Below, one piece after another: positions 43,000 to 58,636 of a stretch of 64,000 nucleotides of DNA. Positions within the stretch are counted from its first letter, which is position 1. The number at the start of each line of letters is the position of its first letter. Position numbers and translations under genes: made by a program. This stretch comes from Victivallis vadensis (GTDB lineage: Bacteria; Verrucomicrobiota; Lentisphaeria; Victivallales; GWF2-50-93), in NCBI GenBank assembly GCA_945883805.1, contig CAMCYE010000005.1, forward strand, positions 5,269 through 69,268, read 5' to 3'. The notes beneath the pieces were generated by a model, which worked only from the letters and a program-made list of their open reading frames with translations, did no database searches and was not told the origin of the DNA.

Positions 43000-43495
43000 G
43001 ATCGGTGTTCCTTTCCTTAAAATTTATTTTGAACCCGTGAAGGTCTTTTTAACTATTACTTATTCTTTGATTTTTACTTTGTATTTAAAGTATGCCAACA
43101 AACTTTAACCGATTGGTGAGGAACTCTCCGCTCCTCTCTTTGATTGCTTGCTTTTTAAGCAGAATCTATCGCCGCTTCGACGGGCGACTCGGCTTTAATT
43201 GTATCATATTCACTTATCAAAAGCAAGCCTAGATCAAAGACAAACTAAAAATATGTCCTCCTTTCTATTTTCTTCACAGAAAGATATCAGCCCATCCAGA
43301 CGAGCCCGTTTTTCCCGAATTACAGCATCAATGAACAAATATGTTTCCTTTTCGTATACTTAATTATATCATTTTTTTCGAGTCTTGTCAATAGCCTGCA
43401 AGGCAAAAACCACAAATAAAACAAAAAAAAGTTTTGCTTTGTTTCTTCCGACGATATATTTTAATCTCAGTAATTTCCCCGGAGGCAACATTTTT

Positions 43496-44056
43496 ATGCA
43501 GAAAAGCAAGAACATCATAAAGGTAATCCGCAAGCAGAAGGGCATGACCCTCGACCGCCTGGCAAAGGTCACCGGTCTGACAAAAGGATACCTTTCAAAA
43601 ATCGAGCGGGCCTCGGCACTGCCGCCATTCTCCACTCTCGAACTTATCGCCAAAGCCTTCGACATCGACGTGGTGTCGATGATCGAGAAGAATTCAAGTG
43701 CGCACCTGCACCCGGACATCGATCTCATGAAGAAGGGTGAGAGGGAAGAGGGAGACGGGGCCAGCACGCGGGAGAACTGTTCCTTCACATCCCTACTCCA
43801 TTCCTACAGGGGCCGTTACATGAGCCCCATACTTGTGACCTTCGAGGCGGGCGCGGAGCGCGAGTTCGAGCACGACAGCGAGGAGTTCGTGTATGTCCTC
43901 CGCGGGAGCATCACCCTCCTCTATGAAAACGAAAGCTTTTCCTTAAGCACGGGTGATTGCTTCTACTTAGACTCCAGGAAGGAGCACCGCTTCAGGAACG
44001 GCAAGAACGGCAAGACCTACCTCCTGTCAGTATCCTTCAACTACCGCAAATACTGA
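43496..44056 (+). CDS. XRE-family HTH / C-terminal cupin transcriptional regulator, paralogue 1
   Basis: The start is trimmed to MQKSKNIIKVIRKQKGMTLDRLAKVTGLTKGYLSKIERA (HTH_3), with GGAGG 10 nt upstream. The cupin part is EEFVYVLRGSITLLYENESFSLSTGDCFYLDSRKEHRFRN. Same architecture as PuuR-type regulators. Confidence 0.8.
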   Translation: MQKSKNIIKVIRKQKGMTLDRLAKVTGLTKGYLSKIERASALPPFSTLELIAKAFDIDVVSMIEKNSSAHLHPDIDLMKKGEREEGDGASTRENCSFTSLLHSYRGRYMSPILVTFEAGAEREFEHDSEEFVYVLRGSITLLYENESFSLSTGDCFYLDSRKEHRFRNGKNGKTYLLSVSFNYRKY

Positions 44057-44112
44057 TTCCCCGATACCGGCCCGACGCAACGGTTCAGGTTGCTCCGACA
44101 TCTCCTAAAAAC

Positions 44113-44195
44113 AACCACAGAGGGCACAGAGAAATTCTAATTTACAACAGAACCATGACGAATGCGTCTCTTCTCCCTCTGTGTCCTCTGTGGTT
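44113..44195 (+). repeat. Long imperfect hairpin between regulator 1 and the downstream promoter
   Basis: AACCACAGAGGGCACAGAG (44113-44131) pairs with CTCTGTGTCCTCTGTGGTT (44177-44195) around a ~45-nt loop. It is duplicated at 56737-56819. Confidence 0.6.
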
Positions 44196-44260
44196 AGTTC
44201 CAGAAAGAGACTGGTCGATTACCTCTCCCCACAAAACTGATAAAAAAAATCAATTGGCTG

Positions 44261-44310
44261 TTGACACCAAACCTGGAATGCGTATAATATGAATGTTTCC
44301 TATTTGGAAA
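44261..44310 (+). promoter_or_regulatory. Consensus promoter plus TSS-proximal inverted repeat (candidate operator), copy 1
   Basis: TTGACA (44261-44266), a 16-nt spacer, TATAAT (44283-44288), then TTTCC-TATTT-GGAAA at 44296-44310. Confidence 0.6.
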
Positions 44311-44435
44311 TATTTAACGTCGCAACCGTGCGCTTGGCGGATGTTCGGGAACGACTTTCGCGTGTACGTCGAATTGTTCGTACATCTTCGGATCGGGAGA
44401 TAATAATTAGTAATTTGACAAGGAGAGGAGAAATC
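44295..44435 (+). promoter_or_regulatory. 5' leader of the M81 operon (first ~97 nt shared with the mmsA-operon leader)
   Basis: 44289-44391 differs from 56914-57016 at only two positions, whereas the 16-nt promoter spacer alone differs at four. It contains local stems such as GTACG-TCGAATTGTT-CGTAC. I recognised no known riboswitch class. Confidence 0.4.
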
Positions 44436-45893
44436 GTGAAGATAGCAGTAGCCGGTATAATCCAGGAGACATGCAGTTTCAGTCCCGTGAAAACGACATT
44501 GCGAAACTTCAAGATATCCTTGGGAGATGAAGTCGTATTGTCTGCAGATGCGGGCGGAGTGATTGGAGGCTTCCTCAGCGCCATGGAACACTCCTGCTGC
44601 AGTTTTACAGGGACACTGAACGCGCAGGCAATGTCTGGAGGGTCACTTTCCTCAAGCACATTACTCTTTCTGAGGAAAAAACTGTTGAATGGCCTCGGAA
44701 AGGTCCGCGGATTCGACGCCGTCTTTATTTCCCTGCACGGGGCGATGGCCTCGGATGACGAACCCGACGCCTGCGGTTTAATCCTTGAGGACGTGCGAAA
44801 ACTGGTCGGGAGCCGGTGTTTTGTAGCGGTCGAACTGGATCACCATGCAAATGTCACAAGGAGGATGGTCTCGGCGGCAGACGTGATTGCCGGCTATGAG
44901 AAACAGCCGCACGATTTGGCGGTCTCTGGCGCAAAGATGGCCAGGGTGATGTCGGACATCCTCAAATGCGGGCTAAAGCCGCATGCCTCCCTGGTCAAAA
45001 TCCCCATGCTAGCGCCGCAGGACAACTTCCTGACCTCGTCTGGGCCGATGAAAGAATGGTTCAGTCTCGCCCGTGAGATGGAAAAGGACGGGGAAGTTAT
45101 CGTCGCCTCGACTTTCCCGACCCAGCCGTGGCTGGACGCCCCCGACAACGGCTGGAGCTGCCTGGTGTATGCCGACAGCCCTGAAAAAGCGCGGAGATGC
45201 GCCGAACAACTGGCTGCAAAAGCCTGGCGAATGCGGAAGGAATTCTGGCATTCCGAGCGTCTGCCTCTCTCTGAGACCATAGCTGCGGCAAATTCTGAAC
45301 CGAAAGGACTGGTCGTGATTTCGGACACCGGCGACGCGGTGTTAGGGGGCGCCCCTGGAGACAACATGTCGATTATAGCTGAAATGCTGAAGCATGATCT
45401 GAACGGGACGGCGTTGGTTCCTGTCGTCGCACCAGATGCGTTTGCAAAGGCTCTGGCCGCAGGAGCAGGCAGTAAGATCACATTAAGCCTGGGTGGCAGG
45501 ATGAGCGCCGGTTTTTCTCCCCGCCTTAAAATATCCGGGACGGTCAGGGCTTTTGCCGGAGCCGGGGATTTCATGTTCGATGACGGGCGCAGGCGTCCGA
45601 AAGGCCGTTCAGCCCTGTTCGAGCACGGCAATCTGAAAATCGCCATACTGGAGTTGCGGGACTATTCGATAAACCATCCCTCTCTCTACCAGAATCTGGG
45701 AGTGGATGTGGAAAAAGCGCAGATGGTGGTGCTCAAGACCGGCAGCAATTTCCAATACTTCAAAGAATACCAGAGCCGCCTGATCCGCGCGGACTCGCCG
45801 GGCCCGACACAGTCGGATCTCACCGCATTCAAATGGGAAAAAAGAAGCCGTCCACTTTATCCTTTTGATGGCATAAAAAACTGGAGACCATGA
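44436..45893 (+). CDS. M81-family (MlrC-like, DUF1485 + MlrC_C) metallopeptidase homologue
   Basis: GTG 44436 is preceded by GGAGAGGAG. (V)KIAVAGIIQETCSFSP matches the family N-terminus (M-x-IAVAG-x-HETN-x-FSP). Also LHGAMASDDEPDACG ... LDHHANVT ... YEKQPHDL. Confidence 0.7.
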   Translation: MKIAVAGIIQETCSFSPVKTTLRNFKISLGDEVVLSADAGGVIGGFLSAMEHSCCSFTGTLNAQAMSGGSLSSSTLLFLRKKLLNGLGKVRGFDAVFISLHGAMASDDEPDACGLILEDVRKLVGSRCFVAVELDHHANVTRRMVSAADVIAGYEKQPHDLAVSGAKMARVMSDILKCGLKPHASLVKIPMLAPQDNFLTSSGPMKEWFSLAREMEKDGEVIVASTFPTQPWLDAPDNGWSCLVYADSPEKARRCAEQLAAKAWRMRKEFWHSERLPLSETIAAANSEPKGLVVISDTGDAVLGGAPGDNMSIIAEMLKHDLNGTALVPVVAPDAFAKALAAGAGSKITLSLGGRMSAGFSPRLKISGTVRAFAGAGDFMFDDGRRRPKGRSALFEHGNLKIAILELRDYSINHPSLYQNLGVDVEKAQMVVLKTGSNFQYFKEYQSRLIRADSPGPTQSDLTAFKWEKRSRPLYPFDGIKNWRP

Positions 45894-49965: not shown

Positions 49966-50022
49966 ATTCAGAGTTAGGGAATTTCAACGCTTGTGTTAAT
50001 TTAACGCTGAAAGCGTGTGGTA

Positions 50023-50196
50023 ATATAGCCTATGGTTTCAACCATAGGGACTATGATCATGATGATTGCGTCCTGAATGGACGAAGTGTATCCATGTTTT
50101 TGGGTTAGCTACTTAAAAACAACTCCGTCTCTTCAAGACGAACAGATGTGTATGAGCTACCTGTGGTTGAAACCACAGGCTATAATACATTATCCC
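50023..50196. repeat. ~170-bp palindromic element with ~26-bp inverted ends inside the operon-1 region
   Basis: ATATAGCCTATGGTTTCAACCATAGG (50023-50048) against CCTGTGGTTGAAACCACAGGCTATAAT (50170-50196, reverse complement ATTATAGCCTGTGGTTTCAACCACAGG). Each end is itself a hairpin. Confidence 0.6.
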
Positions 50197-50326
50197 TCCG
50201 GGATAGAGAGAAAGCTAATCTAGGAATAAAAGGAAATAACAAAATTAAATATCCTTTGAATCCTGTTATCCTGTCAATAAAATCTTAAATTCCGGAGCAG
50301 TCGGCCAAGTACAAATTAGGGAATTC

Positions 50327-51127
50327 ATGAAACTCAGTTGTCTACCTGTGTCTTTTTATCCGGATTTCAGATCAGGGCAAATGGATATCTCCGGATGGTC
50401 CGCCATGGCTGAAAAGTTCGGCCTTGACTCGATCGACCTGAGCGTACTGATCACCCGCTGTGACAGGTCAATACCTTCGTTCCCTGTTGACACCGTGGCC
50501 ACATATACCGACTTCACGCATCCCGACAAGACAGTCAGGGAATGCGAATTCAACAGTTTCATGGATGATGTCAGGGACTGTGCGAGAATCGGAGCGCGCT
50601 ATTTGCGTGTCACCGCCGGACAGGCTCATCCGGAAACTTCCACCTGCAGCGGTTTGGACTGGGCGGCGGATTATCTGGGTAAAGCTGCGGATTTCGCAAA
50701 ATCTGAAAACATCGGGCTGTTGTTTGAAAACCATTCGAAACCGGGAGTCTGGAAATATTACGATTTTGCAGGAGAACCGGAGATTTATTTTGAACTTGTG
50801 AAGCGTCTTGAGGGCGTCAACATAGATCTGCTGTTCGACACGGCCAATGCGTGTTTCTACAGGCAGGATCCGGTGCTTATGCTTGAAAAAATATTCCCGC
50901 GCGTACGGCGCATCCATGTCGCGGACATCGCCGAATCGGATGATTTGAAGCCGGTCTTGATTGGGCACGGCATTGTTCCGCTGTCGGAAATATTCGGTTA
51001 CCTGGGCCGGAATGGATTTATCGGCTCCTTGTCAATCGAAGAAGCATCCTTTTGTGGGGCCGATGGGGTCGAAAAAGCCGTCCGCGCCACCAGGTGCCTA
51101 TGGCGTGACGCATGTTTTGGGGCATGA
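50327..51127 (+). CDS. Sugar phosphate isomerase/epimerase (xylose-isomerase-like TIM barrel)
   Basis: 266 aa. GARYLRVTAGQ, LLFENHSKPG, HVADI. Confidence 0.7.
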   Translation: MKLSCLPVSFYPDFRSGQMDISGWSAMAEKFGLDSIDLSVLITRCDRSIPSFPVDTVATYTDFTHPDKTVRECEFNSFMDDVRDCARIGARYLRVTAGQAHPETSTCSGLDWAADYLGKAADFAKSENIGLLFENHSKPGVWKYYDFAGEPEIYFELVKRLEGVNIDLLFDTANACFYRQDPVLMLEKIFPRVRRIHVADIAESDDLKPVLIGHGIVPLSEIFGYLGRNGFIGSLSIEEASFCGADGVEKAVRATRCLWRDACFGA

Positions 51128-51230
51128 GCATCACGTGCCGGCAATATTAATAGGATTTTATTAACGACATCACCGGCTGTCGAATATTTTTTGGAATTTC
51201 TGGAAAAATAAATATAAGGACGGATAGCAT

Positions 51231-55806: not shown

Positions 55807-56119
55807 GGTGTCCAAGAGCCTCGTTAATGGCTTAGTGTTTAATAGTTGACCTTTTGAAATATTCTCCATTTCTCCCATCCTCCTGTTTTTTTTGGCTCGA
55901 ATATGTTGTTATTTCTTCTTCCATCGCCCCTGCGAATGAATACTGCCGTCCTTGCCTTCGGGCAAATATGTTTCCTTATTGTATACTTTATTATATCATT
56001 TTTCCGGATCTTGTCAATAGCCTGCACGGCAAAAAACACAAATAAAACAAAAAAGTTTTGCTTTGTTTCTTCCGACGATATATTTTAATCCCAGTAATTT
56101 CCACGAAGGCAAGATCCTG

Positions 56120-56680
56120 ATGCAGAAAAGCAAGAACATCATAAAGGTGATCCGCAAGCAGAAGGGCATGACCCTCGACCGCCTGGCAAAGGTCACCGGC
56201 CTGACAAAAGGATACCTTTCAAGAATCGAGCGGGCCTCGGCACTGCCGCCATTCTCCACGCTCGAACTCGTCGCCAAGGCCTTCGATATCGACGTGGTGT
56301 CGATGATCGAGAAGAATTCAAGCGCACACCTGCACCCGGACATCGATGTCATGAGGAGGGGCGAGAGGGAAGAGGGAGACGGGGCCAGCACGCGGGAGAA
56401 CTGCTCCTTCACATCCATACTTCATTCCTACAGGGGCCGTTACATGAGCCCCATACTTGTGACTTTCGAACCGGGCGCGGAGCGCGAGTTCAAACACGAC
56501 AGCGAGGAGTTCGTGTATGTCCTCCGCGGGAGCATCACCCTCCTCTATGAAAATGAAACCTTTGCATTGAACACGGGCGACTGCTTCTACCTGGACTCCA
56601 GGAAGGAACACCGCTTCAGGAACGGCAAGAACGGGAAGACCTACCTCCTTTCAGTATCCTTCAACTACCGCAGATACTGA
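56120..56680 (+). CDS. XRE-family HTH / C-terminal cupin transcriptional regulator, paralogue 2
   Basis: Nearly identical to 43496-44056. Differences include SRIERAS, VAKAF, DVMRRGE, FEPGAEREFKH, ENETFALNTG, NYRRY. Confidence 0.8.
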   Translation: MQKSKNIIKVIRKQKGMTLDRLAKVTGLTKGYLSRIERASALPPFSTLELVAKAFDIDVVSMIEKNSSAHLHPDIDVMRRGEREEGDGASTRENCSFTSILHSYRGRYMSPILVTFEPGAEREFKHDSEEFVYVLRGSITLLYENETFALNTGDCFYLDSRKEHRFRNGKNGKTYLLSVSFNYRRY

Positions 56681-56885
56681 TTCCCCGATACCGGCCCGAC
56701 GCAACAGTTCAGGTTGCTCCGACATCTCCTGAAAATAACCACAGAGGGCACAGGGAAATTCGCATTTATAACAGAACCATGACGAATGCGTCTCTTCTCC
56801 CTCTGTGTCCTCTGTGGCTAGTTCCAGAAAGAGACTGGCCGATTACCTCTCCCCACAAAACTGATAAAAAAAATTAAATTGGATG

Positions 56886-56935
56886 TTGACACGAAACCGA
56901 AAATGCGTATAATATGAATGTTTCCTATTTGGAAA
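56886..56935 (+). promoter_or_regulatory. Consensus promoter plus inverted repeat, copy 2
   Basis: TTGACA (56886-56891), a 16-nt spacer, TATAAT (56908-56913), then TTTCC-TATTT-GGAAA at 56921-56935. Confidence 0.6.
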
Positions 56936-57115
56936 TATTTAACGCCGCAACCGTGCGCTTGGCGGATGTTCGGGAACGACTTTCGCGTGTATGTCGAATT
57001 GTTCGTACATCTTCGGGGTGTTGGAACCGGAAAAGCCGTCAATAGCACCAGGTACATATGGAGACGCATGTTTTTGGGAGTGAACATTACAAGCCGGTAA
57101 TATTAGGAGGAAGTT

Positions 57116-58636
57116 ATGAACGACATCAAACGACTGAAATTATTTTACGGAGGCCAATGGCTTGAATCAAAGTGCCACAAACACATGGACATTTTCGATC
57201 CGAGCACCGGCGAGGTGATTGCACAGGCGCCCTGCTGTACGGCTGAAGAGGTCGGGTCGGCGATAAAATCCGCCGCCACTGCTTTTCCCGCCTGGGCGGA
57301 CACCCCGGCCATGAAAAGGGTGCAGGTCCTTTACAGGTTTCGCGAACTGCTTGAAAAGCATTTGGACGAACTTACCATGCTGGTTTGCCGGGAAAACGGC
57401 AAAGTCTGGGAGGAGGCCAAAGGCGATGTCCTTAAGGCAAAGGAGGCGGTGGAGTTCGCCTGTGGAATCCCGTCCCTGCTGATGGGAGAATCCCTCATGA
57501 ACGCGTCCGCCGGCTTTGACACCGTACTCTACAGGGAACCGGTCGGTGTGTTTGCGGGGATCGCGCCATTCAACTTTCCCGCGATGATCCCGATCGGCTG
57601 GATGATGCCGCTTTGCATAGCCTCTGGAAACACCCTGGTACTCAAGGCCTCCAGCATGACCCCGATGACTGCCCTGCGCTGTGCGGAACTTCTGCAGGAG
57701 GCGGGTCTGCCGGACGGAGTCGTCAATATCGTCACCTGCAGCCGCAACGAGGCGGAACTATTCCTCAAGGAGCCGGCCGTAAAGGGCGTGACGTTTGTCG
57801 GTTCGACTTCTACGGGAATGCATGTATACGCCACGGCATCCGCAAACGGGAAAAGGGTGCAGGCCCTGTGCGAGGCAAAGAACCACGCGTTAGTGCTGGA
57901 AGATGCGCCACTGGAGCATACCGCCCGCAGCATCATCAACGCCGCTTTCGGATGCGCTGGGGAACGCTGCATGGCGCTGCCGGCAGTTGTGGCGCATGCG
58001 AATATAGCCGACGAACTTGCGGGGCTACTTGCGAAGTTCGCAGGCGAACTGAAGGTCGGTCCCGCATACGACAAGTCCTCCGAACTCGGTCCGCTTGTCA
58101 CAGCGGCCCACCGCAAGTCGGTCCTTGATTGGATTGAGAGGGGGATCAAGGAAGGGGCGAAACTTGTCCTCGACGGCAGAAACGTGCAGGTCAAAGGTTA
58201 TGAAAAAGGTTTTTACCTCAAGCCGACCATCTTCGATCACGTGAAACCCGGAATGAGCATAGGCGACGATGAAATCTTCGGTCCGGTTCTCTGTATCAAA
58301 AGAGTCGCGGATTTCGAGGAGGGATTGCAGCTCATGAATGGGAACAGGTTTGCAAACGGATCAGTGATATTCACAAGGGACGGTCATTTCAGCAGGGAAT
58401 TCGCCAGACGCACGCATGGCGGCATGGTCGGGATCAACGTAGGCATCCCGGTGCCGGCCGGAGTATTCCCGTTCACAGGACACAAGGATTCCTTCTTCGG
58501 CGACTTGCATGCGCTCGGAAAGGATGGAGTAAGGTTCTACACAGAGACAAAAGCCGTAACCACACGCTGGTTCGGGAAGGAGGAGGCCGGAAAACAGAAA
58601 ATCGACACATGGGACGGCACAGTTGTACGTCCCTGA
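57116..58636 (+). CDS. mmsA: CoA-acylating methylmalonate/malonate-semialdehyde dehydrogenase
   Basis: FNFPAMIP, EAKNH, FGCAGERCMA (catalytic Cys) and a C-terminus without the usual ALDH Glu-loop pattern. This is a strong overall resemblance to MmsA/IolA. AGGAGG lies upstream. Confidence 0.8.
   Translation: MNDIKRLKLFYGGQWLESKCHKHMDIFDPSTGEVIAQAPCCTAEEVGSAIKSAATAFPAWADTPAMKRVQVLYRFRELLEKHLDELTMLVCRENGKVWEEAKGDVLKAKEAVEFACGIPSLLMGESLMNASAGFDTVLYREPVGVFAGIAPFNFPAMIPIGWMMPLCIASGNTLVLKASSMTPMTALRCAELLQEAGLPDGVVNIVTCSRNEAELFLKEPAVKGVTFVGSTSTGMHVYATASANGKRVQALCEAKNHALVLEDAPLEHTARSIINAAFGCAGERCMALPAVVAHANIADELAGLLAKFAGELKVGPAYDKSSELGPLVTAAHRKSVLDWIERGIKEGAKLVLDGRNVQVKGYEKGFYLKPTIFDHVKPGMSIGDDEIFGPVLCIKRVADFEEGLQLMNGNRFANGSVIFTRDGHFSREFARRTHGGMVGINVGIPVPAGVFPFTGHKDSFFGDLHALGKDGVRFYTETKAVTTRWFGKEEAGKQKIDTWDGTVVRP

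Follow-up and report, generated by a model that had tools for sequence, protein, structure and literature searches.

A duplicated repressor-promoter-operator cassette as the probable source of a leader shared by two operons of Victivallis vadensis

Two operons in the stretch of Victivallis vadensis DNA analysed here (64,000 nucleotides, hereafter the window), one opening with an M81/MlrC-like peptidase gene and the other with an aldehyde dehydrogenase gene, are preceded by the same consensus promoter and by almost the same leader. This arrangement raises the question of whether the leader is a cis-regulatory RNA serving both operons, as put forward in the initial annotation of the sequence, or reached its two positions in some other way. 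On the evidence gathered from the source genome (G000) and from a comparison set of 61 genomes of the same order (Victivallales), the feature is most probably the promoter-operator end of a duplicated regulatory cassette, and not an RNA element.

The elements from which the question arises lie at the following positions of the window:

44261..44288, plus strand: sigma-70-type promoter of operon 1, TTGACA-16-TATAAT, matching the consensus at 12 of 12 positions (promoter scan)
56886-56913, plus strand: sigma-70-type promoter of operon 2, TTGACA-16-TATAAT, likewise 12 of 12 (promoter scan)
44290..44316 (copy at 56915-56941), unstranded: putative operator, an imperfect 11-bp inverted repeat, TGAATGTTTCC-TATTT-GGAAATATTTA, invariant in four cassettes
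44317..44391 (copy at 56942-57016), plus strand: distal leader, taken to be the duplicated operon-1 5' UTR past the operator, present twice in G000 and otherwise in operon 1 of G002 only

Several of the original observations on these elements were reproduced by alignment. The 103 nt past TATAAT (44289-44391 against 56914-57016) differ at only two positions, 44320 (T/C) and 44367 (C/T), and the TTTCC-N5-GGAAA repeat does lie 7 nt past the -10 box (44296-44310 and 56921-56935), where it forms the core of a longer inverted repeat. The 16-nt promoter spacer indeed carries four differences between the copies (at 44268 and 44274-44276), three of which make up one clustered TGG>GAA change in copy 2, TGG being found at both loci of G002, the sister species (an uncultured Victivallis sp. 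of the same genus).

Global alignment of the surrounding DNA revealed that the leader is no separate island of similarity, being the terminal part (the last tenth) of a segmental duplication of 1056 nt (43337-44391 against 55964-57016), with 93.2% identity, 72 differences and a distance of 12.6 kb between the copies. The homology breaks off sharply at both the 5' and the 3' end, and from left to right each copy comprises a leftward consensus promoter, a gene encoding an XRE-HTH/cupin regulator, a REP-like hairpin, the rightward promoter, the palindrome and the leader:

43337..44391, plus strand: cassette copy 1, with the regulator gene, two promoters and the leader (global alignment)
55964..57016, plus strand: cassette copy 2, paired with copy 1
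43363..43391, minus strand: leftward promoter of copy 1, TTGACA-17-TG-n-TATAAT with an extended -10, matching the consensus at 12 of 12 positions (promoter scan)
55990-56017, minus strand: leftward promoter of copy 2, TTGACA-16-TGnTATAAT, 86 nt upstream of a DUF4838 gene
43496..44056, plus strand: XRE-HTH/cupin regulator of 186 aa (Pfam HTH_3 and Cupin_2)
56120-56680, plus strand: regulator paralogue (Pfam HTH_3 and Cupin_2)
44115..44193 (copy at 56740-56818), unstranded: long REP-like hairpin, CCACAGAGGGCACAGAG...CTCTGTGTCCTCTGTGG, which is a dispersed repeat and has inserted between regulator gene and promoter

The leftward promoter of copy 2 faces the DUF4838 gene, which lies on the minus strand with its start at 55878. 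In copy 1 the leftward promoter is followed by a half-site, GGAAACATATTT (43337-43348, minus strand), which also occurs in copy 2. The same arrangement is found in G002, and in a metagenome locus (L057) an M81 gene is driven by a promoter related to the leftward one, which is presumably active. The arms of the REP-like hairpin match many other sites in G000 (contigs C55, C12, C84, C58 and C168) and in relatives from the genus; the hairpin is present in both G000 cassettes and in neither cassette of G002.

In both regulator paralogues the HTH_3 domain spans residues 8-59 and the Cupin_2 domain residues 113-179. The low dN between them (0.028, against a dS of 0.225) indicates that both are under purifying selection. 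The best NCBIfam match of the regulator is PuuR (NF007408), the putrescine-utilisation repressor, at 54.3 bits; with a cut-off of 211 bits for that family, orthology to PuuR was rejected. Matches to PDB sequences are confined to the HTH domain. Both the M81 operon and the aldehyde dehydrogenase operon have a regulator gene immediately upstream, and the pairing of the regulator with M81 recurs in G002, in G009 (a more distant member of the genus) and in L057. The regulators presumably control the metabolic operons next to them.

Among the 61 genomes, BLAST recovered DNA resembling the promoter and leader from G002 only, where it occurs at both operons. In operon 1 of G002 (locus L004), the promoter, the operator and the full leader precede the M81 gene, and the leader is 89.4% identical to that of G000 (97% over its first 32 nt, which form the operator, and 86% over nt 33-103). 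In operon 2 (L016), the regulator is intact, with 82% amino-acid identity to that of G000, and the promoter and operator are identical to those of G000. Similarity in this leader decays right past the operator (about 7 differences in 24 nt) and ends about 45 nt after the -10 box, where the sequence joins the dehydrogenase-proximal UTR directly and the distal leader with its GTACG hairpin is absent. The rightward promoter is accordingly found in both G002 copies, and the palindrome is invariant across all four cassette copies of the two species. At L004 (G002:C253, 1100-1440) the regulator copy has become a pseudogene that carries frameshifts and lacks about 250 nt, and the promoter and operator are intact; the M81 operon of G002 is therefore probably served by the regulator paralogue of the other locus.

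The architecture of G000 is also seen in G009, where TTGACA-17-TATACT-atgg-ATGTTTCCTAATTGGAAATA precedes M81, the regulator (51% identical) is divergent from the M81-SDR operon and several extra GGAAA(C/T) half-sites surround the promoter. The leader of about 100 nt in G009 is unrelated to that of G000 (local alignment score of 19, against 20.7+-4.3 for shuffles). The palindrome occupies a fixed position, 4-7 nt after the -10, in G000, G002 and G009, and in a further genome (G024) TGTTTCCATAATGGAAACA overlaps the -10 of the regulator's own promoter. We also examined 28 loci with regulator homologues, drawn from metagenomes and GTDB genomes, at 19 of which the top upstream match to GTTTCC-N5-GGAAAC scores higher than in shuffled sequence (p<=0.02), the site usually lying 45-100 nt before the start codon of the regulator. 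Perfect sites (12 of 12 positions) are present in both Kiritimatiellia and Thermodesulfobacteriota, and MAGs labelled Bacillota have near-perfect ones, so that the palindrome adjoins homologous XRE-cupin regulators in these three groups as well as in Victivallales. At three loci from Desulfobacterales and Desulfatiglandales MAGs (L149, L150 and L152), a variant of the palindrome, GTTTAC-N5-GTAAAC, stands about 20-30 nt past the regulator stop codon and a GTTTCC-N5-G(G/T)(A/T)ATAC site precedes the regulator, a layout that resembles the regulator-operator-operon order of the window.

Taken together, the conservation across genomes, the position relative to the promoter and the adjoining XRE-cupin homologues lend good support to the earlier reading of the palindrome as a repressor operator, which we judge to be real and of a known, ordinary kind. 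The palindrome at the expected transcription start, (A/T)GTTTCC-N5-GGAAA(C/T)A, appears to be the only part of the leader kept in other genomes, and it is likely a recognition site that travels with this XRE-cupin regulator subfamily. As far as we could find, GTTTCC-N5-GGAAAC has not been described in the literature as a recognition motif. A search of the G000 genome for further operator sites returned one perfect match, C7:28490, which lies within a long ORF and probably arose by chance. The genome holds 93 TTTCC-N5-GGAAA sites, against about 3 expected by chance (an estimate that assumes equal base frequencies), most of which belong to a different palindrome family, AATTTTTCCG-N3-CGGAAAAATT. 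The latter is present in about 35 copies genome-wide, including two in the window at about 31637 and 32410 (C5:36905 and C5:37678), and could be a terminator-like hairpin or the site of a global factor.

Past the duplicated DNA the two operons differ. Operon 1 encodes an M81/MlrC-like peptidase, an SDR, a class-III aminotransferase, a transaldolase-like protein and an SMP-30 lactonase; operon 2 starts with a dehydrogenase of the methylmalonate-semialdehyde type, and the polysaccharide-related genes that follow it lack Pfam matches. The sequences that lead into the first gene of each operon are as follows:

44392..44435, plus strand: operon-1-specific 5' UTR with the Shine-Dalgarno sequence AAGGAGAGGAG, orthologous to the G002 L004 locus at 80% identity
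44436-45893, plus strand: M81/MlrC-like peptidase gene with a GTG start (Pfam M81 and MlrC_C)
57017..57115, plus strand: operon-2-specific 5' UTR, made up of the remnant 3' end of a xylose-isomerase-like gene and the dehydrogenase spacer
57116-58636, plus strand: aldehyde dehydrogenase gene

The segment 57028-57125 matches 51070-51169 at 76%, of which 51070-51127 is the end of an AP_endonuc_2 ORF (50327-51127). Because the sequence that follows it is the relic of the end of a xylose-isomerase-like gene, the boundary 57016|57017 would mark an old recombination junction at which the leader of operon 1 was joined to other DNA, and the leader appears to have arrived at operon 2 as a passenger. Behind the xylose-isomerase-like gene itself, window positions 51070-51172 hold a defunct duplicate of the region upstream of the dehydrogenase gene, together with the first codons of that gene, in which ATG has become TTA. 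This suggests that the dehydrogenase gene once stood directly after the xylose-isomerase-like gene. The sole large gap of operon 1 contains two inverted copies of the Acido-Lenti-1 RNA (50003-50048, minus strand, and 50160-50205, plus strand; 46 and 38.7 bits in Rfam, with a gathering score of 37), which form the ends of a palindromic element of about 200 bp.

The proposal of a regulatory RNA had started from the observation that the leader is better conserved than its flanks. Differences between the two G000 copies are distributed over the cassette as follows:

5' region of the cassette: 18 of 159 positions
regulator CDS: 36 of 561 positions
stop codon to -35: 11 of 204 positions
promoter: 4 of 28 positions
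leader: 2 of 103 positions

Set against the adjacent 204 nt in a proper alignment, the contrast was not significant (Fisher p=0.23), nor was it against all 3' non-coding sequence of the cassette (p=0.11); only the comparison with all non-coding cassette sequence, including the divergent 5' end, was nominally so (p=0.018). When the 72 differences were placed at random, some 103-nt window with two or fewer differences arose in 66% of trials, and equally clean windows of this length exist at 43496, 43526-43533 and 44146-44147. Given these tests, and given that the spacer differences stem largely from the clustered TGG>GAA change, the leader/flank contrast is not robust.

A second comparison is less easily set aside. 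The leader (2/103) and the intergenic flank (11/204) both fall below the synonymous sites of the regulator (24/123, pS 0.195; p=1.5e-5 and 1.4e-4), the divergence of the leader, 1.9%, being ten-fold lower than that of these sites. Furthermore, the leader lies at the edge of the repeat, where gene conversion usually works least well. For these two reasons, the leader may be under some constraint, acting on either DNA or RNA. Between species, leader positions 33-103 have diverged by 14%, the promoter flank by 15% and the distal UTR by 20% (identities of 86%, 85% and 80%, respectively). The leader is, however, about half as diverged between the species as the synonymous sites of M81 (14% against 31%, p=0.004), a result that counts against the duplicated-cassette explanation.

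A four-cassette alignment of G000 and G002 contains 68 informative sites that pair the copies by genome and 2 that pair the orthologous loci, and beyond 44391 the pattern turns to orthology (13 sites). In agreement with this, the G002 pseudo-regulator is 88.5% identical to the second regulator of its own genome and 82% identical to the first regulator of G000, and the dS between the G000 paralogues (0.225) is below the between-species dS of M81 (0.40) and of the second regulator (0.32) and slightly below that of the aldehyde dehydrogenase (0.25). The initial annotation had named gene conversion as an alternative to constraint acting specifically on the leader. The sites argue for conversion, although for a conversion that affects the whole cassette and not the leader in particular. 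The simplest account of a UTR that is nearly identical within G000, yet without conservation elsewhere, would hence be gene conversion between the copies, which must have been infrequent, the copies having already diverged by 7%. Dispersed duplicates are known to evolve in concert by gene conversion, as in rRNA operons and tuf genes. The likeness to these systems lies in within-genome paralogues being closer to each other than orthologues are and in an insertion, the REP hairpin, that both copies share in one species only; the difference is that the unit converted here is a regulatory module (repressor gene, two promoters and operator) and not a structural gene.

We considered whether the low divergence of the leader could reflect auxiliary DNA sites, either weak secondary operators or the site of another factor, at which looping or cooperative repression would impose constraint at the DNA level. 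The candidates are GTTCGGGAAC (GTTCCGGAAC in G002) and GGAAC..TTTCG. Words resembling TTCC/GGAA are indeed present in the leader, the promoter of G009 is surrounded by extra half-sites, the leader and flank are both below synonymous divergence, and the use of several sites is reported for E. coli PuuR. In spacing and orientation the words are nevertheless unlike the conserved operator, their positions are not conserved between G000 and G009, they are deleted from operon 2 of G002, and no statistical support for them was obtained, all of which makes this explanation unlikely. We regard as very unlikely the possibility that the 75 nt past the operator are a young, Victivallis-specific regulatory element, acting as RNA or DNA and kept nearly identical in both operons by selection, for instance as the binding site of a second, shared factor; on that account the deletion in operon 2 of G002 would reflect a regulatory loss and not neutrality.

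The original proposal corresponds to a lineage-specific cis-regulatory RNA in the distal leader (44317-44391 and 56942-57016), such as a riboswitch or a 5' UTR bound by a protein or sRNA, kept nearly identical at both operons by selection. It draws on the two differences in 103 nt set against the pS of the adjacent gene, on low divergence at a repeat edge, which is unusual for conversion alone, and on a hairpin, GTACG/CGTAC at 44364-44383, in which one of the two differences retains the pair as G-U. The C>T change does produce a G-U pair in G000, but the claim that the hairpin is preserved did not hold, as this is a single event and the same stem is broken in operon 1 of G002 (T-A to T-C), together with two other predicted stems, which makes three broken pairs with no compensating change. 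Folding the three known leaders to a consensus gave 31 predicted pairs, none with compensatory changes, and a covariation term of +0.34, in a sample of three sequences that affords low power. The folds of the two leaders are within 1.3 sd of shuffled sequence (z-scores of -1.28 and -0.88).

Searches for RNA families led to the same picture. Rfam 15 at gathering thresholds returned nothing on the leader, and at E<=10 it returned only noise (<=17 bits) over 44050-44500. A covariance model of the distal leader scored 94-106 bits on its three training sequences and at most 20 bits elsewhere in the 61 related Victivallales genomes, blastn-short of the leader against the whole G000 genome and all fetched loci yielded no further copy, and neither leader contains a terminator-like hairpin with a T-run or an attenuator signature. 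Homologous loci also lack conservation beyond the inverted repeat, as seen in G009, in operon 2 of G002 and in the Infernal search of the 61 genomes: operon 2 of G002 is without the distal 55 nt and 46 more, yet retains an intact regulator, promoter, operator and dehydrogenase gene, and in both G009 and L057 the regulator is still paired with M81 although the leaders are unrelated. These data do not support a shared cis-regulatory RNA, and we deem one very unlikely. A small residual doubt attaches to this verdict, since the leader shows very few differences for the edge of a repeat and covariation could be assessed on three sequences only. Likeness to the riboswitches and cis-regulatory 5' UTR RNAs of Rfam is confined to a 5' UTR of about 150-200 nt with predicted hairpins before metabolic operons. 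Unlike them, the leader matches no family, shows no covariation, is conserved in two sister species only, lacks an expression platform (terminator or SD-sequestering stem) and can be dispensed with in operon 2 of G002.

Least probable of all is a leader peptide, possibly from a leaderless mRNA, starting at the second ATG (44293, 36 codons; 56918-57100, 60 codons), whose frame is open in both G000 copies with 5 of 11 changed codons synonymous, but which has no Shine-Dalgarno sequence, begins 4 nt past the -10 box at an ATG that is probably not transcribed, has different ends and C-termini in three copies, stops after 14 codons in operon 2 of G002 and owes its conserved N-terminus to the operator itself. 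A leader peptide or an N-terminal extension of M81 had also been rejected on frame conservation, the frame open in G000 having a stop in G002.

In the duplicated-cassette explanation that we favour, each cassette would encode an XRE-HTH/cupin repressor and carry, downstream of the repressor gene, a consensus sigma-70 promoter whose predicted start region is covered by the 27-bp palindrome (A/T)GTTTCC-N5-GGAAA(C/T)A. A repressor dimer most likely binds the palindrome and blocks RNA polymerase, and a small molecule lodged in the cupin domain, perhaps a substrate or intermediate of the catabolic pathway, would release it, so that each paralogue may switch its own downstream catabolic operon; weaker binding by each paralogue is also probable at the promoter of its own gene and at the leftward promoter, with weak candidate sites at 43337-43348 and 43440-43458. 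The 75 nt past the operator would be the native 5' UTR of operon 1, which travelled with the cassette when a copy of it was placed before the dehydrogenase gene, and their similarity would be maintained by gene conversion homogenising copies 12.6 kb apart. Repressor binding to the palindrome, the position of the transcription start and the inducer are three points that we infer from this analysis.

The proposed scheme is in keeping with what is known of XRE-cupin factors, which act as local repressors of neighbouring metabolic genes and bind palindromes as dimers, with probable promoter occlusion (PMC7901475). Like the Pseudomonas repressors PsdR, ErfA and PauR and E. coli PuuR, the regulator combines an N-terminal HTH_3 domain with a C-terminal cupin domain, its gene adjoins the metabolic genes that it presumably controls, and a palindromic site overlaps the promoter, with a probable autoregulatory site in addition. 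PsdR controls a metallopeptidase gene (PMC7901475), and the M81 peptidase gene would be a comparable target here. The regulator differs from these repressors in being orthologous to no characterised member, and in that its gene, promoter and operator have been duplicated as a unit and evolve in concert.

These results remove a false lead for a new riboswitch class and concern a poorly studied phylum (Lentisphaerota, represented by a Victivallis-like MAG), although they contain nothing that would surprise a specialist. The two perfect consensus promoters in each cassette may serve as compact inducible parts if the inducer is identified. GTTTCC-N5-GGAAAC also emerges as the candidate operator motif of an XRE-cupin repressor subfamily that extends from Victivallales to Thermodesulfobacteriota and Bacillota, and the cassette would constitute a clear case of regulon growth, in which an entire repressor-promoter-operator module was copied to a position before a second operon and the two copies then evolved in concert.
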